In this document: piece after piece, positions 1 to 10,984 of the stretch
Layout of the letters: the number at the start of each line of letters is the position of its first letter
Position numbering within the stretch: position 1 is the first letter of the stretch
Origin: Methanobacteriota archaeon
GTDB taxonomy: Archaea > Thermoplasmatota > Thermoplasmata > SG8-5 > DAIRED01
NCBI GenBank assembly: GCA_043799545.1
Contig: JAZDNO010000026.1
Location: forward strand, 32,001-96,000
DNA length: 64,000 nt
Reading direction: 5' to 3'
Translations under genes and position numbers: made by a program
Notes under the pieces: model-generated
The model's database searches: none
Seen by the model: only the letters and a program-made list of their open reading frames with translations
Told to the model about the DNA's origin: nothing

Positions 1-1
1 C

Positions 2-817
2 CCGTCGTGCAGGTCTCCCAACAAAGCGGCCTCGAAGAAGTGCGGGGTCTGCGGCGCTCAGATTTCGACCGTGAGGAAGAACGTCGACCTCGAGCAAATC
101 CAGGGCCGTGTGAACGAGACGATTAAAGAGGTCCTGGGAGACTTCGCGGAATCCGAGGATTTCGGGGCGCTCCCAAGCGATATGAAGGAAGAGATCGCCG
201 CCGTCCTTTCTTCCGAGAGGGAAATAACTGAGGAGGAGGTAAAGGACGTCGCCAAGACGCTGACATCACTACCCGAGGACATGACTCAGATTGTCGATGA
301 CATCGCGCTGGGGGAGGACGATTTCGGGGAGGGGAAGGGTGAGGAAGACGGAGGTGGTGAGGGCGAATCGTCCCCGGTAGAGAAAAGCTCTCGGCAACTC
401 AAGAAGAAGCAGATTCTGATGGCGAGGCTCGAACGGTGGAAGAAGATGGGCTACGACGTCTCCGAACTGGAGCCACTCGTCGACGGTGACTTCGAGACCT
501 TCAAAACAAAGGCGAAGGATATACTGTCCAGCAAGCTGAACAAGGCTGCCGCGAAAGGCACCGCCAAGCCTCCCTCCGAGAAGGCGGGCGATTCTAAGAA
601 ACAGGCTCCGCCAGCCTCCCAGAAAACCGACGGCGGAAAGGCCCCAGGAAAGAGGGGCGCCACGCCGGAGGAGCGCGCAAAGTTCCTGAGGCAAATCGGA
701 GTCTGGAAGGAAAGGGGCTTCGACGTCGCAGGTCTGGCCGAGCTTCTCGAAACGGACATGGCGGAGTTTAAGAAGAGGAGCATGGCGATGTTGAAAGCGC
801 AGATGAGCAAGAAGTAG
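2..817 (+). CDS. 5'-truncated hypothetical protein with zinc-ribbon remnant and two copies of a WKxxG(Y/F)DVxxL motif
   Basis: Frame is open from position 2 (PSCRSPNKAASKKCGVCGAQI, zinc-ribbon-like cysteines), so the gene starts upstream of the window. Internal repeats RWKKMGYDVSELEPL and VWKERGFDVAGLAEL. Confidence 0.75.
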   Translation, partial: PSCRSPNKAASKKCGVCGAQISTVRKNVDLEQIQGRVNETIKEVLGDFAESEDFGALPSDMKEEIAAVLSSEREITEEEVKDVAKTLTSLPEDMTQIVDDIALGEDDFGEGKGEEDGGGEGESSPVEKSSRQLKKKQILMARLERWKKMGYDVSELEPLVDGDFETFKTKAKDILSSKLNKAAAKGTAKPPSEKAGDSKKQAPPASQKTDGGKAPGKRGATPEERAKFLRQIGVWKERGFDVAGLAELLETDMAEFKKRSMAMLKAQMSKK

Positions 818-834
818 CCATATTGGTGCGGGCA

Positions 835-1827
835 ATGATCACCGTCAAAAACGTCACAAAAAGATACCGGAAGAACGCCAAGAGCAGCTCGTGGAAGACA
901 AGGGTCAAACAGATGTTCAGCGACAAGAAACGCGAATCCATGACTGCGCTGAACAACGTCGATTTCCAGGCGAACGGCGGAGAGATAATCGGAATCCTCG
1001 GGCCGAACGGCGCGGGAAAGACCACGCTTTTAAAAATAATCGCGGGGTTGCTTGTGCCAGAGGTCGGCCAAGGCGAGGTCAACGGATTCGACATCGTCAA
1101 GGACAGGGAAAAGGTGAGGACGTCGGTGAACTTCCTCATGAGCGGCGGCTGGGTCATCTTCGATTACAAATTCTCCGTGCGGGACAATCTTAGGTTTTGG
1201 GGGGTCTACCAGGGGTTGAGCCTGAAGGACGTCGACCAGAGGGTGGCGGAGGTTTTAAAGGTTGTCGAGCTGGAGGAGAAGAAAGACGAATTCCCCGAAA
1301 ACATTTCCGCCGGGATGAGGCAGAGGATGAACCTTGCCAGATGCCTGCTCGTCGACCGCCCGGTGTATCTGCTGGACGAGCCGACGGCCAACCTGGACCC
1401 CTACTCGGCCGAATTCATTAGGAAGTTCGTGAAGGAGAAGCTCCGAACGGACAATAAGACAATCGTCCTCGCGACCCACAACCTCTGGGAGGCCGAGCTG
1501 CTGTGCGACAGAATCGTCATCCTTAACAAGGGCGAGGTTCTGCTCGCGGACAAAACGGAGGAGATAAAAAGAAAGATCGGCAAGGAGGTGGCCATCATCG
1601 AGATCGAAAGTGAGGACGCGGAACTGCTGAAAACTTTCCGGGGGCTGGATTTCGTGGACAGCGCCACGCTGGAGGGAAACCGCCTGCGAATATTCGGCGA
1701 CGTTAAGAGAAACCTCCCCCGCATCATCGACATCTGCCGGGAGCGCACGACCGTCACAAGCGTGAACGTCCAGGAGCTCTCGCTGAACGACATATTCATC
1801 CAGCTGGTGAGCAGGGGTGAAACATGA
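835..1827 (+). CDS. ABC transporter ATP-binding subunit (DrrA/ABC-2 exporter type)
   Basis: Walker A GPNGAGKTT, signature ISAGMRQR, Walker B YLLDEPT, H-loop ATHNL; C-terminal extension typical of the DrrA family. ATG 835 preferred to GTG 823. Confidence 0.95.
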   Translation: MITVKNVTKRYRKNAKSSSWKTRVKQMFSDKKRESMTALNNVDFQANGGEIIGILGPNGAGKTTLLKIIAGLLVPEVGQGEVNGFDIVKDREKVRTSVNFLMSGGWVIFDYKFSVRDNLRFWGVYQGLSLKDVDQRVAEVLKVVELEEKKDEFPENISAGMRQRMNLARCLLVDRPVYLLDEPTANLDPYSAEFIRKFVKEKLRTDNKTIVLATHNLWEAELLCDRIVILNKGEVLLADKTEEIKRKIGKEVAIIEIESEDAELLKTFRGLDFVDSATLEGNRLRIFGDVKRNLPRIIDICRERTTVTSVNVQELSLNDIFIQLVSRGET

Positions 1828-2681
1828 TAAAGCACAGCCTCTCGCTCTCGGAAAAGCTCGAAGTAGTATATATTTCGATGTGGAGGTACGGGAAGTTAAT
1901 GACCAGATTTAAAACGAGCTTCTTCTTTTCCATAGTCGCCATGTTCGTCTCGATTACGACATTCTACTACTTCGGACAGGTGTTCGGGGACGCCACTGCC
2001 GTGGCCGTTGAAGACTACGGTGGCAACTACTTTTCCTATGTGCTCATCGGACTCGCGTTCAATCAGTTCGCTGTCACTAGCCTCAGCACCTATCTCGCGA
2101 CCGTACAAAATATATATTGGTCCAACTGGCTCGAGCTGATACTGACAGCCCCCATGCGCCTCAAGACATATTTCGTCGCTGCGATGTCCTGGGCTTACAC
2201 GTACTCGACTATCCTCATCGCCTTTTACTTCATCATCGGGGTCGGGATATTCGGGGCCGCGATTGCATTCCCCCCAGGCTGGTACGTCATCATACTCATC
2301 CTGTTCTTGACTGTCCTAAGCATCTCGGGCATCGGTTTGATGGCCGCAAGCACTTTCATGCTGTTGAACGCGAAAGGCCAGGTGGAGCCCATCAGCTGGT
2401 TCGTGGGCACGGTTTCCGCCCTTGTCTGCGGGGTCTATTATCCGCCCGAATTGCTGCCCCCGTCCATCCATGCCATCTCATACATCTTCCCGCACACGTA
2501 TGCCCTCGAGGGGCTGCGAGAGATACTCCTGAACGGGAAAGGCCTCATGGACCCGTCCATCCAAATGATAATCCTGATATTGGCAATATTCTCCATGATA
2601 CTCCTGCCGCTGGGAATGGCGATGTTCAAGTCAGGAATTAAAAAGGCTGAGAAGGATGGAACCCTGGCAAGATGGGTTTGA
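1824..2681 (+). CDS. ABC-2 type exporter permease
   Basis: About six hydrophobic segments, GVYYPPELLP and FPHTYALEGLR motifs of ABC-2 permeases; 4-nt overlap with the ATPase. Confidence 0.92.
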   Translation: MIKHSLSLSEKLEVVYISMWRYGKLMTRFKTSFFFSIVAMFVSITTFYYFGQVFGDATAVAVEDYGGNYFSYVLIGLAFNQFAVTSLSTYLATVQNIYWSNWLELILTAPMRLKTYFVAAMSWAYTYSTILIAFYFIIGVGIFGAAIAFPPGWYVIILILFLTVLSISGIGLMAASTFMLLNAKGQVEPISWFVGTVSALVCGVYYPPELLPPSIHAISYIFPHTYALEGLREILLNGKGLMDPSIQMIILILAIFSMILLPLGMAMFKSGIKKAEKDGTLARWV

Positions 2682-2790
2682 TTCTGCGATCCAGCCCCCG
2701 CGCGATTTCATCGAATTCGCGAGCGGTTGTGCGGCGCGGAATGCAAATCAATTGATGTATTGGGTCACAACAATGTTAATCTATGTGATT

Positions 2791-2806
2791 CCAAAAAATA
2801 TAAATA
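2791..2806 (+). promoter_or_regulatory. BRE/TATA promoter of the putative RiPP precursor
   Basis: CCAAAAAATATAAATA: A-rich BRE-like tract then TATAAATA, flanked by the inverted repeat AATGTTA (2772-2778) / TAACATT (2814-2820). Confidence 0.7.
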
Positions 2807-2879
2807 TGAGATGTAACATTCACGATTCACCCTGACATGCAAAAGCATGTGTGTGGTAACCAAGAAAGGGAGGTTAAAA

Positions 2880-3017
2880 ATGCCAGGAGACGGAAATGGA
2901 TTCGACCCCATCGACCCGGGCCAGGGATACAAGCACAGGCACGGACACGAAGCAACCGGATGCGGATGCGTAGAGGTTGGTTCCATATACGCAGTATTCG
3001 ACCCACAGCCGGTTTAA
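2880..3017 (+). CDS. Putative RiPP precursor peptide, 45 aa: MPGDGNGFDPIDPGQGYKHRHGHEATGCGCVEVGSIYAVFDPQPV
   Basis: Hand-translated ATG 2880 to TAA 3017. Strong Shine-Dalgarno GGGAGGT (2868-2874) 5 nt upstream, own TATA box, and position directly upstream of an RRE-radical SAM gene. Confidence 0.85.
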   Translation: MPGDGNGFDPIDPGQGYKHRHGHEATGCGCVEVGSIYAVFDPQPV

Positions 3018-3030
3018 TCGATTTAAACCG
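3010..3030 (+). terminator. Stem-loop overlapping the precursor stop codon (stabiliser or attenuator)
   Basis: Perfect 8-bp stem CGGTTTAA / TTAAACCG with a 5-nt loop TCGAT. Function is inferred. Confidence 0.5.
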
Positions 3031-3141
3031 ACGGAGAAAAACTCTTCCAATCTTTCTATAATTATTAATAACTGATAATAATAGGGAGCAGCGCGGGCTG
3101 CCAGAGGTGGTTTCACGGAAAAACCGAAACTCGCAAAGGCT

Positions 3142-4491
3142 GTGGTCGTCAAGAAGAAGAACGGAAAGAGCGCGTTCATTCACCCCGACATTCCCAAATG
3201 GCTCGCTTTCCGCGCCGAGGGGGCCCGGACCCTGGAGCTGTGCGACGGAACGCGGAGCGAGCGGGACATCATCGAGACAATTTCGAGGGAATTCAACGAG
3301 CCCATGGAGTATGTGGGGAAGGGAGTCGCCGGCCTACTTAGCCACTGCGAGAAGCAGGGATTCTTCCAGGATGTCACCCCGAAGAGACCGGACGCCCTGC
3401 CAGTGGAGATGAAGATACTCTACCTGAACATCACCCGGGAGTGCAACCTGAGGTGCACCTATTGCTATGCGAGCGCGGGCGCCCAGCGGGAAAAAGAGCT
3501 GACTCTGGAGGAGATAAAGAAGCTCCTGAGCGAGTTCCACGCCCTTGGAAAAGGGACGCGGCAGAACGTCATAATAACTGGCGGGGAGCCGCTGCTGAGG
3601 AAAGACTTCTGGCAGATTGCCGAATATGCGAGGTCGCTGGGGCTCGTCCTTGTGCTTTCCTCAAACGGACTCCTCATCGACAGGGAGACTGCAAGGAAAT
3701 TGGGTAAGCTCTTCGGCGGCGTGCAGATCAGCCTCGACGGCGACAGGGAGATGCACGACAAATGCCGGGGCAAGGGGTCCTTCGACGGGGCGACGAGGGG
3801 CATAGAAAACCTGGTCGAAGCCGGCATCACGCCGTCGATATCTGCCACTGTGACAAAAGAGAACTTCAAAAAGCTGGACAACCTGTGGGACGTGTGCGAC
3901 AAGTACAAAATAAAGCACGTGAAGACCAACCCCATCATCCCCCTAGGCCGGGCGGAGAGCGACAGAGACGAGATAATGCTGTCGAGGGACGAATACATAG
4001 AGCTCTGGAGGGCGACCAAGCAGCAGCTCAAGAAGCGCCGCCTGGAGGTCACGATAGATAACGAGCGGTCCATTTTCTCGGGAGGCACGTCGTTCAAGGG
4101 CACGGGCAACTCTTGCGGAGCCGGCCGGACGTCCATCAGCTTCGAATCCAACGGGGACGCCTATCCGTGCCAGGCATCGCATCTCCCGCAGTTCCTCTGC
4201 GGTAACATAAGGGAGAAATCTCTGGAAGAGATCGTGACGGGGGCGGAAGTTCTGAAGGACTGGATGGGCCGCTCAATCAACGACATTCCGGGATGCAGCT
4301 CCTGCGAATGGAAGATGTACTGCGGCGGCGGCTGCTTCCTGCAGGCGGCTCTGGGCCACGGGACCGTGCACGCGCCGGATGTCTATTGCGACGTTTACAA
4401 GTTCGAATACGAGGAGACGTTTTGGGAATTTGTGGACAAAAGGGAAAAAGAACAGGAGGAATCAAATGACGGGCAAGCAGCCAAAGTTTGA
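3142..4491 (+). CDS. RRE (PqqD-like)-fused radical SAM/SPASM peptide maturase
   Basis: N-terminal PqqD-like segment (EGARTLELCDGTRSERDIIETISREF); CNLRCTYC radical SAM motif; TGGEPLL; SPASM CX12GX4C then CX2CX5CX3CX17C. True start may be the in-frame ACG at 3115. Confidence 0.93.
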   Translation: MVVKKKNGKSAFIHPDIPKWLAFRAEGARTLELCDGTRSERDIIETISREFNEPMEYVGKGVAGLLSHCEKQGFFQDVTPKRPDALPVEMKILYLNITRECNLRCTYCYASAGAQREKELTLEEIKKLLSEFHALGKGTRQNVIITGGEPLLRKDFWQIAEYARSLGLVLVLSSNGLLIDRETARKLGKLFGGVQISLDGDREMHDKCRGKGSFDGATRGIENLVEAGITPSISATVTKENFKKLDNLWDVCDKYKIKHVKTNPIIPLGRAESDRDEIMLSRDEYIELWRATKQQLKKRRLEVTIDNERSIFSGGTSFKGTGNSCGAGRTSISFESNGDAYPCQASHLPQFLCGNIREKSLEEIVTGAEVLKDWMGRSINDIPGCSSCEWKMYCGGGCFLQAALGHGTVHAPDVYCDVYKFEYEETFWEFVDKREKEQEESNDGQAAKV

Positions 4492-5602
4492 AATCAAGAG
4501 CGGGCGAATTTACTACGAGAACATACCGCCGGGAACGCCTATGTCCCAGCTGATGACGGGATTTTTCAAGGACAAAATAGAGAACGAGGGGATGGGTCCG
4601 CTGATGGCGCAGTGGATAGCGACCAGCAAATGCAATTTCAGGTGCCCGCATTGCGGCACCGCGGCCTCTGAGGCAAAGCCCGACGAGCTGAGCTGGGCCC
4701 AAATCAAACCGGTCATAGAGGATTTGGCAAGCATGGGATGCAAGACTTTCACGATGACCGGGGGGGAGCCGATACTGCGACCGGATTTCTGGAAGATCGT
4801 GGACCACGCCCACGCCAACGGGATGAAGACCGGATTCGTGACGAACGCCTGGGCCATAAAGGATTTCGAGGACGAGCTGAGGCGAGCCAAGATAGAGACC
4901 ATCCTGGTCAGCATCGACGGCTACAGAGAGAACCATGACAAAATCCGCGGGATGCCCGGCTCGTACAAGAAGTGCCTCGAGGCCATCCGGTTCCTGAAGG
5001 ACATCGGCACCCCCGTGGTGGGCGTGTCGACGGTCTACATGAAGGACAACGTCGATTTCCTGCCGCAAATCGTGGACGAGGCGGCCAAAGCCGGCGCGGA
5101 CAGGCATCGCCTCCAGGCCATCGTGCCGGAGGGGCGCTCGAAGGGCAAGGGTAACAGCCGGGAGGAGATAAAAAAGGCCATAAAATTCGTCTACGACGCC
5201 AGGAAGCGAGGGGTCAACATCGAGGTGTGCGAGGCGCACGGATGGCTCGGGCCGCTTGACGGCATCCTGAGGGCCAACTTCTACTGCGGCATCGGCCTGA
5301 ACACGCTGTGCATAATGCAGAACGGCGACGTCATGGGCTGCTCCCTCATGGACTACCCGGACAAGACAGAGGGGAACGTGAAGGACAAAAGCATCAAGGA
5401 CATATGGTTCAACGGTTTCAAGATGTACAGGCAGCCTACGCTCCCGGACCTCCCCAAGGAATGCACCGACTGCAAGCAGCTCATCGAGTGCAGGGGCGGA
5501 TGCTGGCTCCACCGCATGAACAACAACTTCTGCTTCCTCCCCATGGCCGTGGAGGTCGCGCGAGAATCTGGGGATTTCCCCAATCTCGACGAGAAGTACT
5601 GA
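4466..5602 (+). CDS. Radical SAM/SPASM protein without RRE (second maturase)
   Basis: CNFRCPHC motif, TGGEPILR, SPASM CX12GX4C then CX2CX5CX3CX9C. ATG 4466 follows SD GGAGGA and overlaps the upstream gene end. Confidence 0.93.
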   Translation: MTGKQPKFEIKSGRIYYENIPPGTPMSQLMTGFFKDKIENEGMGPLMAQWIATSKCNFRCPHCGTAASEAKPDELSWAQIKPVIEDLASMGCKTFTMTGGEPILRPDFWKIVDHAHANGMKTGFVTNAWAIKDFEDELRRAKIETILVSIDGYRENHDKIRGMPGSYKKCLEAIRFLKDIGTPVVGVSTVYMKDNVDFLPQIVDEAAKAGADRHRLQAIVPEGRSKGKGNSREEIKKAIKFVYDARKRGVNIEVCEAHGWLGPLDGILRANFYCGIGLNTLCIMQNGDVMGCSLMDYPDKTEGNVKDKSIKDIWFNGFKMYRQPTLPDLPKECTDCKQLIECRGGCWLHRMNNNFCFLPMAVEVARESGDFPNLDEKY

Positions 5603-5672
5603 CGCTCGCAGCTTGATGGCGCGGAAGGCGGCAGCGGGGCGCGCAGCCCGCGGGTCCAATCTATGCCTCCGC

Positions 5673-6935
5673 CTAGCACATCAGGAAGAGCCAGTAAATC
5701 GCCACTTGGGCGAGGGTGAGGGGGATGCCGACCTTTGCGAACTCCATGAACGTCAGGGTCTGGTTCCCTTTCCTCTCTGCATTCTGGATGATTATCACAT
5801 TGCTGGCGGCTCCGAGGATGAGCAGGTTGCCGGCGATGGTGCTCCCCGCAGCGAGGGCCATGAACCCCCTGTCTCCCGTGCCAGCTGCCACGAGCATCGG
5901 AATGTAAAGAGCCACGAGCGGGACGTTTGATATCACCTGGCTGAGCAGGACGGAGATGATGATAATCATCGCAATTCCAGACATGTCTATGCCCCATTCC
6001 CCGATGAGCCCTTGGAAGAAGCCCGAATTCCAAACGGCGGCCATCAAGACGAACATCGCGGCGAAGAAGACCAGCGTGGACCAGTCGACTCCCTTCATTA
6101 TCCCGACGCGTTTCGGGCTGAGTGCGAGGATTGGCAGCGCAGCCGCAAGCGCGACATAAGTTAGGCGCATCTCGGTGTTCAGTCCTGCGATGGCCATGGA
6201 GATTTTCAAAGCCACCAGCGCCAGTATCATCACGAGGGAGGCTTTGGCGAGCATCGCGAGCTTCGGGTCGCGCAGCGGAACGTCCTCGTGGACCAGCGGC
6301 CTGCCGTGGAACTCTTTTCCGAAGAAGATCCTCAACGCGAGGTATGCTAGCAGGAGGTTGAGCACCGTGGGGACCAGCAGATTCCTCGCGAAGGTGGCGA
6401 ACGGGTTCTCCATCCCCCCGCCGATGGCGATGAGAAGGTTCTGTGGGTTTCCGATTGGGCTGGCCACGCTTCCGACTGTAATCGAGAAGGCGAGCACGAG
6501 CAGCATCAGCTTTGGGGACATCTCGTGCCGCTTCGACATCGCCAGCACGACCGGCGTGCCTATGATTGCAAGCGTGTCGTTCATGAGGAGCGCGGACGCC
6601 GAACCGAACCCAAACATCATAAGTAAGACGAGCTGGTCCGTTGTGCGGGCGCGTCTGAAAAGCCTGTACGACAGATGCTCCAGGTAACCGCTCCGCTCCA
6701 GCGCCTCCCCCACAACGAACATCCCGAAGAGGAATATCATCACGTCGGGGTTTATGGCCTTAATGGCTTCGACGGGTGATATCTGGAGCGTCGCCACGAC
6801 CGCCACCGCGCCACCGAGCATCACCTGCCATATCTGAAGGCGGAAACGCCCGACCTGCCTCACCGCTATGAGCACAAAGACGGCGAGCAGGATGAAGATG
6901 GTGAGGGGCGGCACGGCATCAAGGAAATCCGGCAA
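5673..6935 (-). CDS. ArsB/NhaD/SLC13-family anion permease
   Basis: Polytopic membrane protein with SALLMNDT, ASPIGNPQNLLI, ISNVP and AGSTIAGNLLILGAASNVII motifs. Confidence 0.9.
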   Translation of the reverse strand: MPDFLDAVPPLTIFILLAVFVLIAVRQVGRFRLQIWQVMLGGAVAVVATLQISPVEAIKAINPDVMIFLFGMFVVGEALERSGYLEHLSYRLFRRARTTDQLVLLMMFGFGSASALLMNDTLAIIGTPVVLAMSKRHEMSPKLMLLVLAFSITVGSVASPIGNPQNLLIAIGGGMENPFATFARNLLVPTVLNLLLAYLALRIFFGKEFHGRPLVHEDVPLRDPKLAMLAKASLVMILALVALKISMAIAGLNTEMRLTYVALAAALPILALSPKRVGIMKGVDWSTLVFFAAMFVLMAAVWNSGFFQGLIGEWGIDMSGIAMIIIISVLLSQVISNVPLVALYIPMLVAAGTGDRGFMALAAGSTIAGNLLILGAASNVIIIQNAERKGNQTLTFMEFAKVGIPLTLAQVAIYWLFLMC

Positions 6936-7022
6936 GCAGATATAATATTAATGAAGCCGGCTCGCGCGGAAGGCCGACCCAACCTTTAAATCCCATCTAT
7001 GCGATGCTCGTTTTGGGATAAT

Positions 7023-7721
7023 ATGAAGGAACGCATCAAGACATACGTCATGGACCTGGACGAGCAGATAGGCGGAGGGGTGCCGAAGGGCCACGTCGTG
7101 CTGGTCTCCGGGATGCCTGGAACTATGAAATCGTCAGTCGCTTACAACGTTCTATACTACAACGCGCGCGAGCTAGGTACGCGAGGGCTCTATGTCTCGC
7201 TCGAGCAGGGACGCGACAGCATCGTGGAGCAGATGGCCGGGCTCGGCATGGCGCACGGGGAGGTCGAGGAGCTTGTGAACATCGTGGACCTCGGGTACCT
7301 GCGCATGAACACGGACCAGGGAAAGATGAGCCACGACTGGCTTGAGGTTTTTAGGCTGTATGTCCAAAACCTCCGCGCTGCGACGAAGTACGAACTGCTG
7401 GTGGTCGATTCGCTCCCGGTGCTGGAGATTCTTTCCAAGCCCGACGACCGCCGCGTGAGGCTCTTCGAGCTTTTCGGCTGGCTGCGCGAGCTGGGGATAA
7501 CCACGTTCATCATCTCCGAGTCGGCGAAGCGCGACGACGTCGTGCACGAGGAGGACTTCCTCGCGGACGGCATCATCCTTCTCAGGAAGGAGATAGTCGG
7601 CAACGACGTCCAGCGCCAGATAATCGTTGACAAGATGCGCGGCGCGAAGCACGCCATGGGCGCCTACTCGCTGATGCACGACGGGGAGAACTTCAGGATA
7701 ACGAAGGTCATAAACGGCTGA
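7023..7721 (+). CDS. KaiC/RAD55-like ATPase, single domain
   Basis: Walker A GMPGTMKS, LYVSLEQ, Walker B LLVVDSL, ADGIILL and KMRG motifs. Confidence 0.9.
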   Translation: MKERIKTYVMDLDEQIGGGVPKGHVVLVSGMPGTMKSSVAYNVLYYNARELGTRGLYVSLEQGRDSIVEQMAGLGMAHGEVEELVNIVDLGYLRMNTDQGKMSHDWLEVFRLYVQNLRAATKYELLVVDSLPVLEILSKPDDRRVRLFELFGWLRELGITTFIISESAKRDDVVHEEDFLADGIILLRKEIVGNDVQRQIIVDKMRGAKHAMGAYSLMHDGENFRITKVING

Positions 7722-7792
7722 ACCGTGGTGGCAGCCTCACCGTTCAATCCTCGCCGTCCTCGCCGCACGTTCAACTAGCTTTCGGGAAATCT

Positions 7793-7804
7793 ATGAGAAC
7801 TCTC
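7793..7804 (+). promoter_or_regulatory. Operator-like 12-mer ATGAGAACTCTC upstream of TATA
   Basis: Identical copy at 11027-11038; about 19 nt upstream of TTTAACTA (7813). Confidence 0.5.
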
Positions 7805-7877
7805 AGGTAATCTTTAACTAGTCTTACTTACAAAGTAACTTTTCAAGCGTTGCGCAAGCAACGCCGGAGGCTGAAAA

Positions 7878-8375
7878 ATGAGACGATTGGCAACAATAGC
7901 GGTAGCGCTGGCCTTCGTCGCCCTTATCTTTCAGGGCGGCGGAGCTCGAGCGTGCGGTGTGAACGTCGTGGACGCGACAATCAGCGCCACCATCTCGGGG
8001 GGAAACGCGTCGTTCGTAGTGACTTACCCTCCGGAGACGGAGGTCGCGGGGACGATACGCCTAGCTCCCAGACCGCTGGTCTTCACGGAAAACGAGGAAA
8101 CGGGATGCTGGGAGACCGGGGACGTGAGCGCTCGACTGATAATATCCGGAGGCAACTCGGAGATGGCAACATTGATACCTGCGGGACACGGACCGCACGC
8201 GCATGAGACCGTGCTGAGGCTCGGCGGGCCGCTCAAGTTCGTATGCGACCCACTGACGCCCGGCACGGTTTCTCTCGGACCGCTGCCGCTGATGGAACCG
8301 GACATCCAGGACACGTTCGGCAACGGCAGCCCGACGATAATCCTGATGGAACCGGACATCGAAGACCCATACTAA
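7878..8375 (+). CDS. Secreted hypothetical protein with duplicated C-terminal LMEPDI(Q/E)D motif
   Basis: Signal peptide MRRLATIAVALAFVALIFQGGGARA; DNA repeat ctgatggaaccggacatc occurs twice near the 3' end. Confidence 0.7.
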   Translation: MRRLATIAVALAFVALIFQGGGARACGVNVVDATISATISGGNASFVVTYPPETEVAGTIRLAPRPLVFTENEETGCWETGDVSARLIISGGNSEMATLIPAGHGPHAHETVLRLGGPLKFVCDPLTPGTVSLGPLPLMEPDIQDTFGNGSPTIILMEPDIEDPY

Positions 8376-10984
8376 GCGAGCATGGTACACTGCCCATGTC
8401 TAATAAACTCTTTCGATATTTCTTTTCTAAGGATCTTGTTTCCCATATCGTCAGCTAAGGAAAGAGCCCGCTTAAAAACACTCCTGGCCTCATCCTCACG
8501 ACCGCAAGCATTGCACGCCATCCCAAGGCGGGTGAGGGCTCGGGCGATGGCTTTGGGCTGAGCGTATCGCTCCGCTGCCTCGACGCCAGACCTCGCAAAG
8601 TCCAGCGCTTCCGTATACTGGCCTCGCTGGTAGTAGACCATCGAAAGGTTGTTGTGCACGGCCACCAGCATACGCAGATCCCCGATGCCCACAAGAATGT
8701 CACGCGCCTTTACCAGCGCATCCTCCGCCGATGTGAGGTCCGGTTTCCTTATCAGCACGCCCCCGAGGTTCGCCAGGGCCATCCCCTCCATCGGGAGGTT
8801 TCCGGTCTCTCTCGCCAGGTTAATGGTTCTATCGTAGTAGCCAACAGCCCCCGGTATGTCGCGCACCGCGAATGAGATCTTTCCGAGCGACATGAGCAGT
8901 TTGAGGATCGTAGCCTTCTCCTCGCTACCTTCCAGAAGCTTCAACGCCCGCTCTTTATAATACCTCGCCCGCCCGAGGTGCCCCCGCGCCTCTTCCACCC
9001 GCCCCTTGCCGTAGAATGCCAATGCCAACAGCGGCGTGCTTCCGCAGGATTCGGCCAGCTTCCTCACCATACCGAATTCGCTTTCGGCCATTTCCATGTC
9101 CTCTGTCTCGAGGAGCGATCCCATGAAGTACCGCCCTCTTGCCTCGGATTCCCTGTTCCCGGTTTTCACAGAGAGGGCAATCCCCTGGTCGAGCGCATGG
9201 CGCGCTTCAGCCCTCTTCCCTCTATGCAGGCACAGCTCGCCCAGGGCGCACAGCGCGTCGCATTCGAGCCCGGAGATCCGCGCCTCCCGCGCCAGTGAAA
9301 CTGCGGAGCCGAGCTTGATGGAGGCCTCGCTCCACCTTCCCACGTGCCCGTAGACCTTGCCCAGGGAGACCAGCATCTTCGGGTCAAGCTCCGTCCGCCC
9401 GCCGCACAAAACATCGGCAGCCTCGTCCAGCCCGTGCACGAACCCCTTCCCGACCAGCTCGACCGCCAGCTTGCAGAAAAGGGCGCGCGCCTCTGCATCC
9501 TCCCCGGCCTTGCACAAATGATGGATGGCCTCGAGCCCGCTTGCGGGACCGACCGACCCCGCGTAGTGCCTTCCCAGCAGGAGATGGGCCCTCTTCCTCT
9601 CAGGGCCGGCCCGCCTCTTCTGGACAAAGTCAGACAGGATGTCGTGCACTCCGAACGCCGTGGGCGACACCGGCATGGCCAGGCCGCGCTCGACAAGGCC
9701 GTCCATCCTCTCCCGCCCCACGCCCAGCGGTCCGGCCAAGGCGTCGACGGAGATCGGTTCGCGCGAGACGCTGAGCAGCGTCATCGCCTCCCAATCGGCT
9801 TCGGAGAGACCGGAAAACACCTCGGCGCGCAGGTAACAGTCCAGGCTTTTGTCGACCGCCGGGCTCTCCGCCGGGGCGAGCTTGAGAAACAGGGGGTGCC
9901 CCCCGCAGAGTTGAACCAGCCCTCCGGCTGGCACCTTCCTGGCCGCAAGTATCTTCCTCGAGGATTCGGAATCCAGGAAACCTAGCTTGATTTCGGAGAC
10001 AGTTCCGTCCATAACGTCGCGCCCGTCATGGATTTTCGGGCATCTTCTGCCGATCGACACAAGCTTGAGGCCAGGTTCGCCACGGGTTATTTCCAGAAGC
10101 ATCGACACGAGGTCCATCGCGTCGCCGCGTGCGGCATGGATGTCATCGATGACCACCGCCAGCCTCATCCGCTTGGCGTCCTCCGCCATCGCGCGCCCGA
10201 AGACCTGCAAATCCCAGTCGCCTGCGGAGAGCGCGGATGCCGTGCGGCTGCGACCGAGGACTGACAGGAATGCCCCCAGCTCCGCCGCCACCTGCTGCGC
10301 CGAGGTCCAGCGCTTCAGCGGAATCCAGCAGACGTGCGACCTTGCGGACCAGTTTTTCACCATTCTGGATATGAACGCGGTCTTTCCAATCCCGGCGATT
10401 CCCGTGACAACGAGCATTTTCGCGGCGCGGCTGCGCCACCATTCGGACGCCTTGGCCATCTCCGCGCTCCGGCCGTAGAAATCGCCCAGCTCGGGGATTG
10501 CCTTTACGGCATAGCCGCCGAAACCGCGCTTGACGCGCCGGCCCTCAAACCAGTTCAGGTCCAGCTCCCCGAATTTCACTGACCCGGCGACCTCAGACAA
10601 CGTGCATCCTGCAGGGACGTACGCCGGAATCTCGGAGAGCGGAACGACCCTCGGACCTCCCGGCGTCTCAATCCTCACATCCAGCATCTCGGCCCTCTCC
10701 ATGAGCGCCCCGAGTTCGACCGCGCCAGCCCTGTCGAGCCGGTAATATTTTGAGATGTGGGTCCGGCCGGCCGGCCTCGCGCGCCTAACCTCCACCAGCC
10801 TCGCGCGCTCCATCTCCTTCAGAGCCCTCGCGACGTTTCCCCTTCCGACTCCGGTGGCGTACGCGATACCCTCCTGTGTAACCGTGTTGGGAACGTCGTG
10901 GTCCCTGACGACGCGCTGCTCGCCGAGGTGGAGGACTATACGCTCCTTCACTGTGAACGCGGCCTCTCCCTTCCTTGGCCTCAT
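8372..10984 (-). CDS. wHTH-STAND (NB-ARC/MalT-like) NTPase-TPR regulator
   Basis: N-terminal HTH (TQEGIAYATGVGRGNVARALKEME), Walker A GIAGIGKT, Walker B VVIDD, STAND GxP motif CGGHPLFL, multiple C-terminal TPRs. Confidence 0.9.
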   Translation of the reverse strand: MRPRKGEAAFTVKERIVLHLGEQRVVRDHDVPNTVTQEGIAYATGVGRGNVARALKEMERARLVEVRRARPAGRTHISKYYRLDRAGAVELGALMERAEMLDVRIETPGGPRVVPLSEIPAYVPAGCTLSEVAGSVKFGELDLNWFEGRRVKRGFGGYAVKAIPELGDFYGRSAEMAKASEWWRSRAAKMLVVTGIAGIGKTAFISRMVKNWSARSHVCWIPLKRWTSAQQVAAELGAFLSVLGRSRTASALSAGDWDLQVFGRAMAEDAKRMRLAVVIDDIHAARGDAMDLVSMLLEITRGEPGLKLVSIGRRCPKIHDGRDVMDGTVSEIKLGFLDSESSRKILAARKVPAGGLVQLCGGHPLFLKLAPAESPAVDKSLDCYLRAEVFSGLSEADWEAMTLLSVSREPISVDALAGPLGVGRERMDGLVERGLAMPVSPTAFGVHDILSDFVQKRRAGPERKRAHLLLGRHYAGSVGPASGLEAIHHLCKAGEDAEARALFCKLAVELVGKGFVHGLDEAADVLCGGRTELDPKMLVSLGKVYGHVGRWSEASIKLGSAVSLAREARISGLECDALCALGELCLHRGKRAEARHALDQGIALSVKTGNRESEARGRYFMGSLLETEDMEMAESEFGMVRKLAESCGSTPLLALAFYGKGRVEEARGHLGRARYYKERALKLLEGSEEKATILKLLMSLGKISFAVRDIPGAVGYYDRTINLARETGNLPMEGMALANLGGVLIRKPDLTSAEDALVKARDILVGIGDLRMLVAVHNNLSMVYYQRGQYTEALDFARSGVEAAERYAQPKAIARALTRLGMACNACGREDEARSVFKRALSLADDMGNKILRKEISKEFIRHGQCTMLA

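Follow-up and report, generated by a model that had tools for sequence, protein, structure and literature searches.

A 45-residue archaeal peptide encoded beside two radical SAM/SPASM enzymes as the probable precursor of an uncharacterised RiPP

We conclude that the short open reading frame at positions 2880-3017 of the 64,000-nucleotide stretch of archaeal DNA analysed here (the window) is, judged by how its sequence has been conserved, a genuine protein-coding gene under purifying selection, and that it probably specifies the precursor of an uncharacterised radical SAM RiPP produced by a compact cassette with two SPASM enzymes and an ABC exporter. The firmest part of this reading is that the peptide is a genuine RiPP precursor of the adjoining enzymes, which we hold to be very probable. 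That its cysteines are used to form thioethers, as their conservation suggests, has a slightly less than even chance, and cross-links other than thioethers take a distinctly smaller share of the total. The features on which the argument draws are as follows, with coordinates in the window except for the last.

820-5714, plus strand: block of five genes (ABC ATPase, ABC-2 permease, peptide, rSAM1 and rSAM2), missing at the syntenic site of a genome of the same genus.
823-1827, plus strand: ABC transporter ATP-binding protein, DrrA-like (PF00005, E 2.3e-30; PF13732, DrrA1-3_C).
1824-2681, plus strand: ABC-2 type permease (PF01061, E 1.3e-12).
2793-2808, plus strand: A/T-rich TATA-like element read from the sequence, a candidate archaeal promoter of the peptide gene.
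2868-2874, plus strand: Shine-Dalgarno sequence GGGAGGT, 5 nt upstream of the ATG, read from the sequence.
2880-3017, plus strand: gene for the 45-aa putative precursor peptide, with a leader-like part, a His-rich linker and a conserved core.
3010-3030, plus strand: predicted hairpin that takes in the stop codon, with an A/T-rich tract behind it at 3040-3082 (fold of 3000-3145).
3142-4491, plus strand: rSAM1, an RRE (PqqD-like)-radical SAM-SPASM peptide maturase, assigned from Pfam domains, an AF2 model and Foldseek.
4466-5602, plus strand: rSAM2, a second radical SAM/SPASM enzyme without an RRE (PF04055, 4.1e-27; PF13186, 1.4e-7).
Positions 2914-3057 of locus L022 (contig C2 of the window genome), minus strand: paralogous peptide of 47 aa that contains C-H-G-P-C-D-H-G and has a hydrophobic tail with G-P-W.

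The reading frame runs from the ATG at 2880 to a TAA at 3015-3017 (45 codons), and its translation is identical to the one quoted in a first-pass annotation of this DNA, in which all the residues singled out (Y17, H19, H21, H23, C28, C30, F8-D9-P10 and F40-D41-P42) were also numbered correctly. As that annotation remarked, the frame is missing from the track of open reading frames; it was left out because even its longest version, from the ATG at 2847, encodes 56 residues, under the usual 60-residue threshold for listing. The 45-residue product is present in a public protein collection as an entry of NCBI origin without a name, so some gene caller had called it. The strong Shine-Dalgarno sequence ascribed to the gene was confirmed, and in the orthologous and paralogous peptide genes that were examined, GGAGGT precedes the start by 5-8 nt. 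The orthologues, too, have A/T-rich TATA-like stretches about as far from their start codons. A scan of the plus strand for sigma-70 promoters and intrinsic terminators, whose models include no archaeal signals, returned nothing useful.

Six distinct sequences could be aligned: the window copy and five orthologues from Methanomassiliicoccales/Thermoplasmata MAGs and metagenomes (G016; P0075, which is the L029 copy; P0073; P0076; and the second of two tandem genes in L037). The peptide frame (+1) is the only one open in all six, invariant residues are written with differing synonymous codons between copies, and pairwise dN/dS ranged from 0.07 to 0.50, at a dS that was mostly 0.6-2. Because this frame alone is open throughout, dN/dS is below 1, as the first-pass annotation had asked to see, and the Shine-Dalgarno sequence is conserved, we take the gene to be protein coding.

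These orthologues came from several searches. A six-frame search of relatives gave one clear match to the peptide (G016, E 7.6e-5), directly upstream of an rSAM1 orthologue with 61% identity, and a scan of the genome collection returned this contig only. Four further sequences were reached through rSAM1 homologues in a large protein collection and through a profile search of 1.84 billion representative proteins, which gave no credible relatives outside the small orthologue group; a word-based protein search with the peptide had found only the window's own protein, the orthologues emerging later by profile search. The fourth profile match, P0074, is a 416-aa repeat protein that aligns at a K-P-I-D-P stretch only, and the sole match of a metagenome pattern scan (L031) falls on the antisense strand of a gene for a membrane protein, no radical SAM gene being close by; both were judged to be chance matches. 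Wherever the contig reaches far enough (G016, L029, L037, L038 and L039-L044), some 80-125 nt separate the peptide gene from an rSAM1 orthologue downstream. This is the conservation at syntenic loci that had been proposed as a check, and together with the orthology it bears out the earlier view of a precursor-type peptide gene adjoining an RRE-bearing radical SAM/SPASM enzyme. A homologue of rSAM1 with 48% identity (P0004) has a gap of about 73 nt ahead of its gene. Three distant homologues (L033, L035 and L036; 31-34% identity) stand in other contexts with other kinds of upstream gene, which places them beyond the range of the peptide family. Orthologues of rSAM1 are patchily distributed, with one turning up among 21 other genomes in the order and, at E <= 1e-60, none beyond the window genome in a 400-genome sample of the phylum.

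Within the peptide, the residues invariant in all six copies are M1, G3, G5, P10, I11, P13, G22, C28, C30, V33, G34, I36, Y37 and F40, and residue 32 is always acidic (Asp in two copies, otherwise Glu). They mark out a leader-like motif, [FY]-x-P-I-x-P, at residues 8-13 and a core, G-C-x-C-[VI]-[ED]-V-G-x-I-Y-x-x-F, at residues 27-40. The His-rich linker at residues 18-24 is specific to the window: in its place the orthologues read [QE]-W-G-[KQ]-[ED], G22 being the sole residue shared, and none of the five has H19, H21 or H23. On this alignment, the linker acquired its His run in one lineage, by replacement or insertion, and the run has no part in the conserved mechanism. Since it occurs in the window copy only, the HxHxH motif loses the functional role first proposed for it, and neither three-residue cyclophanes (Y17-K-H19, H19-R-H21 or H21-G-H23) nor metal binding by His and Cys, both of which had been suggested, can be the conserved function of the family. 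The lead is thus corrected, in that the eye-catching His motif should not guide experiments; the residues that the six natural variants mark as important are C28, C30, [DE]32, G34, Y37 and F40.

The other motifs fared unevenly. Both cysteines of the reported CxC are invariant, which keeps thioether formation, the chemistry suggested for them, the leading candidate, but their spacing varies (one or two intervening residues in orthologues, five in a diverged cassette), so that the motif is really C-x(1-5)-C. Of the twin FDP motifs, the first falls within [FY]-x-P-I-x-P, where F/Y, P, I and P alone are kept, and its conservation fits the leader or recognition element that it had been supposed to be; the second site keeps F40 only, and there is no conserved pair. 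The C-termini vary among orthologues, the window peptide ending in Q-P-V. No family in Pfam or NCBIfam matched the peptide, with NCBIfam precursor models followed to an E of 10.

The enzyme encoded downstream has the features of a radical SAM RiPP maturase, namely an RRE, a CxxxCxxC motif, a seven-Cys SPASM domain and conserved adjacency to a precursor. Its radical SAM and SPASM domains both score above the Pfam cut-offs (PF04055, 6.5e-28; PF13186, 7.8e-9), and its PqqD-like domain (PF05402, E 3.8e-4) scores 21.2 bits, slightly under the cut-off of 23.4, the family being recorded in orthologues. The AF2 model has a mean pLDDT of 91, and residues 1-71 form the beta3-alpha3 layout of an RRE at a pLDDT of about 90. 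Among 34 homologues, C101, C105 and C108 of the CxxxCxxC motif are invariant and the SPASM cysteines (C325, C343, C385, C388, C394, C398 and C416) nearly so. Among solved structures, CteB (5WHY/5WGG, in a full-length match) is nearest to rSAM1, before SkfB, SuiB and anSME; for rSAM2, SkfB comes first, and both enzymes also count PqqE among their solved relatives. Because both enzymes fall far under the curated cut-off of every NCBIfam family, the best match of rSAM1 being StsB at 190 vs 625 bits, their chemistry is not readable from family membership. A predicted complex of rSAM1 with the peptide scored 0.25, where the mark was 0.32, and is given no weight for or against binding. The second enzyme overlaps rSAM1 by 26 nt and is 72% identical to the gene directly 3′ of the rSAM1 orthologue in G016; its start was placed at 4466 by comparison with an orthologue, the alignment beginning near residue 34 of the open reading frame from 4379.

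The start of rSAM1 calls for comment. Conservation of the frame reaches back 9-10 codons beyond its first canonical start, the GTG at 3142, and the codon at 3115 is ACG (T-E-K-P-K-L) where orthologues have ATG (M-E-K-P-K-L in L029), with an SD-like AGGTGG immediately upstream of it. A non-canonical start, a shift to the GTG at 3142 or a base error in the assembly could explain this. With ACG at what the orthologues indicate was ancestrally an ATG, expression of rSAM1 in the window genome is not assured. The spacer ahead of it is predicted to be strongly structured (-49.8 kcal/mol for 3000-3145; z -5.55), and the hairpin at 3010-3030 with the A/T-rich tract behind it may act as an attenuator or terminator between the precursor and enzyme genes. 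A second G+C hairpin lies at 3088-3102. T-rich tracts also occur 3′ of the orthologous peptide genes, but because the orthologous spacers are shorter and A/T-rich, the RNA structure as such does not look conserved.

The genes are co-oriented and have well-defined edges. In a genome of the same genus (G001, contig C92), window positions 1-819 and 5715-8997 have their counterparts on a single contig with about 100 bp between them, leaving the block's site at C92:4342-4445. Because the flanks nearly abut there, the five genes constitute a single indel of 4.9 kb, and this shared indel ties the exporter to the cassette in the window genome. No transporter adjoins the orthologous cassettes in G016, so that a role in export is backed by co-insertion in the window genome only. 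The ATPase scored 227.8 bits against TIGR01188, under the cut-off of that family. A recent foreign origin of the block was considered, and base composition gives no support to it, the GC content of 0.50-0.60 being indistinct from that of the flanks. No leader peptidase is encoded within the 4.9 kb.

Related cassettes indicate which part of the peptide is shared most widely. Five more RRE-rSAM/SPASM genes from the same taxonomic order, 36-39% identical to rSAM1, were found (one on another contig of the window genome, L022; two in G016; one each in G006 and G014), and just upstream of each is a same-strand ORF of 35-47 codons preceded by a Shine-Dalgarno sequence. The peptides have at least two Cys followed by a hydrophobic, Gly-rich stretch with an aromatic residue. 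In L022, the peptide gene lies 30 nt upstream of its enzyme gene (36% identity) and there is no second SPASM enzyme; the G006 and G014 cassettes resemble it, with peptides of 35-37 aa (L024 and L025). Because no side-chain feature other than the Cys pair is shared by the peptides of all cassettes, that pair is the most likely site of the chemistry shared by the RRE-bearing enzymes. A homologue of rSAM2 (50% identity) is present in only one paralogous cassette, on contig C77 of G016, 3′ of the RRE-rSAM gene. The motif C-x-[DE]-φ-G-x-x-Y-x-x-F is common to its peptide and to the window type and is lacking in the cassettes without rSAM2. This co-occurrence, a correlation over two lineages only, suggests that rSAM2 may target the acidic residue, Tyr or Phe of the core.

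Several arrangements near the orthologues are worth recording. In L037, two tandem precursor genes of different subtypes (C-G-C ... I-Y-S-P-F-D-P vs C-N-N-C ... I-Y-A-A-F), at 40-165 and 378-509, precede a single rSAM1 orthologue. A gene for a B12-binding radical SAM protein of 645 aa stands ahead of the precursor at L038:236-2173 and L029:1-1163; it resembles RiPP C-methyltransferases (TIGR03975, 163.8 bits, below the cut-off of 281.85), which suggests that methylation may be added in the branch with the C-G-C/I-Y-S-P-F subtype. Tandem precursors and a B12-dependent radical SAM gene are features usual in RiPP clusters. In G016, just upstream of the precursor, is an N-terminally truncated duplicate of rSAM2 (L032:1999-2763; 254 aa, 73% identical) without the CxxxCxxC region, an intact rSAM2 also lying downstream, and a divergent peptide and RRE-rSAM cassette adjoins the truncated copy.

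Explanations that dispense with a modified, exported peptide carry very little weight. It is hardly credible that the functional element is a non-coding RNA or an overlapping frame, whether that of 2837-3061 on the plus strand or an antisense ORF. Frames +3, -1 and -3 across the peptide are also stop-free in the window copy, and the region downstream folds strongly; yet stops break up each of these frames in two orthologues or more, four of the five have them in the 2837-3061 frame, whose conservation would have told against the peptide, the substitution pattern is protein-like in frame +1, and the best Rfam match of the peptide region reached 22.4 bits against a gathering score of 43. The overlapping-frame reading was therefore rejected on the conservation data. 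Scarcely less improbable is an unmodified small metal-binding peptide beside which the radical SAM gene is found incidentally. The clustering of H19, H21, H23, C28 and C30 within 12 residues gives this idea its appeal, but none of the five orthologues has the His residues, and the linkage to an RRE-rSAM gene survives rearrangements, tandem duplication and the divergence of paralogous cassettes. Only a shade more probable, and still very improbable, is that the peptide gives rise to a redox cofactor that stays inside the cell, like PQQ or mycofactocin, and not to a secreted product. The mycofactocin maturase model is the second-best NCBIfam match of both enzymes (165.8 and 136.1 bits), and transporters are lacking beside the G016 cassettes, as a cofactor pathway might have it; however, both scores are below the cut-off of 265, the peptide does not end in the Val-Tyr of mycofactocin precursors, the block encodes no partner dehydrogenase, peptidase or glycosyltransferase, the occurrence in one of 21 other genomes and the absence from the congener's syntenic site are very patchy for a cofactor, and an ABC exporter was co-inserted in the window genome.

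A weightier alternative, which we still regard as unlikely, accepts the RiPP precursor and disputes the nature of the defining cross-link: the SPASM enzymes would form C-C or C-O bonds at Y37 or F40 and the acid at position 32, such as an aromatic cross-link or a Glu/Asp-Tyr bond of the kind known from PQQ biogenesis, with the cysteines serving as cluster ligands in catalysis, in a disulfide or as metal ligands of the product. Y37, F40 and [ED]32 are conserved as strongly as the cysteines in the cassettes that carry rSAM2, PqqE is among the structural relatives of both enzymes noted above, neither enzyme attains the cut-off of any thioether family, and a substrate Cys can be a cluster ligand, as in CteB, where one ligates the auxiliary cluster (5WGG/5WHY). 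Against this, when all paralogous cassettes are considered, it is the Cys pair alone that is kept and not the Tyr, Phe or acid; the top structural and NCBIfam relatives of rSAM1 form thioethers; and the acid and Tyr are separated by four residues, as compared to three in PqqA. We favour thioethers because the Cys pair is kept in all cassettes and because the nearest enzymes are CteB, SkfB and StsB, an argument limited by the family scores below cut-off and by the fact that RRE-bearing SPASM enzymes also form C-C and C-O cross-links. The peptide also has only two Cys and lacks the repeated C-x-x-x-[DN]-type motif typical of ranthipeptides.

Taking thioether formation on a RiPP precursor as the preferred reading, we propose the following course of events. 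The peptide would be translated from its own strong Shine-Dalgarno sequence, and the hairpin and T-rich tract behind its stop codon suggest that its transcript may be in excess over those of the enzymes. Its [FY]-x-P-I-x-P part may then dock on the PqqD-like RRE of rSAM1, which would join C28 and C30 by radical chemistry to downstream residues in V33-G34-x-I36-Y37-x-x-F40. The bridges would most likely be thioethers of sactionine or ranthionine type, closing a small bicyclic hairpin around G34; a topology of C30-Y37 and C28-F40 is our working guess. The RRE-less rSAM2 could add a second bridge or another modification tied to [DE]32...Y37...F40, and the ABC-2 transporter presumably exports the product or protects the producer.

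More speculatively, and with well under an even chance of being right, the cassette may represent a new RiPP class confined to Methanomassiliicoccales-type archaea, defined by the motif C-x(1-5)-C-x-[DE]-φ-G-x-x-Y-x-x-F and by a cross-link pattern, as yet undescribed, that two cooperating SPASM enzymes install, only one of them equipped with an RRE; a thioether might, for instance, be combined with an acid-to-aromatic bond or with an aromatic C-C bond. Were this so, the product would be among the first structurally defined small radical SAM RiPPs of archaea. Genome mining has predicted thousands of archaeal RiPP clusters, many of them of the radical SAM type and essentially uncharacterised, with very few products known (PMC12144867), and a literature search combining Methanomassiliicoccales, radical SAM and RiPP found no paper. 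The one characterised archaeal SPASM thioether enzyme that we found, CrpC, acts on a large protein (PMC13692751). The present locus is a minimal, well-bounded test case, with a 45-aa substrate, two enzymes, an exporter and mapped edges to its 4.9-kb block, and the cassettes with and without a second SPASM enzyme offer a natural contrast. It is thus suited to heterologous reconstitution, for which it is a clean candidate, and to asking what the RRE-less SPASM partner does; the system itself is new and very rare, and of a kind already known.

Of the known systems, CteA/CteB, the SCIFF ranthipeptide system of Clostridium thermocellum, is the closest in organisation, having a short precursor with a Cys-bearing core beside a polypeptide that combines an RRE, a radical SAM domain and a two-cluster SPASM domain. 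CteB is the best match of rSAM1 by sequence (phmmer E 4.6e-24) and by fold (Foldseek E 1e-22, TM about 0.7), the structural match spanning about 450 columns with the RRE included, at only about 21% identity. SCIFF precursors have six Cys in about 45 residues, whereas the window peptide has two and no SCIFF signature, and the second SPASM enzyme and the archaeal host are further differences; rSAM1 scored 98.9 bits against the SCIFF maturase model (TIGR03974, cut-off 425) and 117 against PapB (NF047865, cut-off 340). Among sactipeptide systems (StsB/streptosactin, SkfB/SKF and AlbA/subtilosin), StsB (NF045574) supplies the best NCBIfam match of rSAM1, at the score given above, and SkfB is its second solved relative and the first of rSAM2, with 91.6 bits for rSAM1 against TIGR04403 (cut-off 300). 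In hairpin sactipeptides the donor Cys are N-terminal of the acceptor-side residues, and the window peptide likewise has its candidate donors N-terminal of conserved aromatic and aliphatic residues; it differs in its variable Cys spacing, from one to five residues between, and in a sequence unlike that of every described precursor family.

Other systems stand further off. Two SPASM enzymes beside a short peptide recall the paired cassettes HxsB/HxsC and ScmE/ScmF, but the models are far from satisfied (HxsB, 93 vs 370 bits; ScmF, 118 vs 400; ScmE, 112 vs 400), and the H-x-H-x-H of the window differs from His-Xaa-Ser and is unconserved. Neither cofactor system fits: for mycofactocin (MftA/MftC, TIGR03962) the 165.8 bits fall short of 265 and the precursor's Val-Tyr end is replaced by Q-P-V, and for PQQ (PqqA/PqqE, TIGR02109) the score is 100.3 vs 381 bits, the acid-to-Tyr spacing of four residues departs from the Glu-x3-Tyr of PqqA, and pqqB and pqqC were not found in the 4.9-kb block. 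Within the archaea, the nearest characterised precedent, compared here by family and description only, would be CrpA/CrpC of Methanococcus voltae, in which an RRE-rSAM-SPASM enzyme installs ranthionine cross-links on an adjoining Cys-bearing substrate, a large repeat protein with C-x-x-[QD] motifs (PMC13692751). The family of CrpC, TIGR04463, does not figure in the best 25 of the 88 NCBIfam families matched by rSAM1, and the large substrate of CrpC differs from the 41-45-aa peptides found here. By analogy with these systems, the locus appears to work like an RRE-dependent radical SAM RiPP system of the sacti- or ranthipeptide kind, and it stands outside all described families of precursor and maturase.
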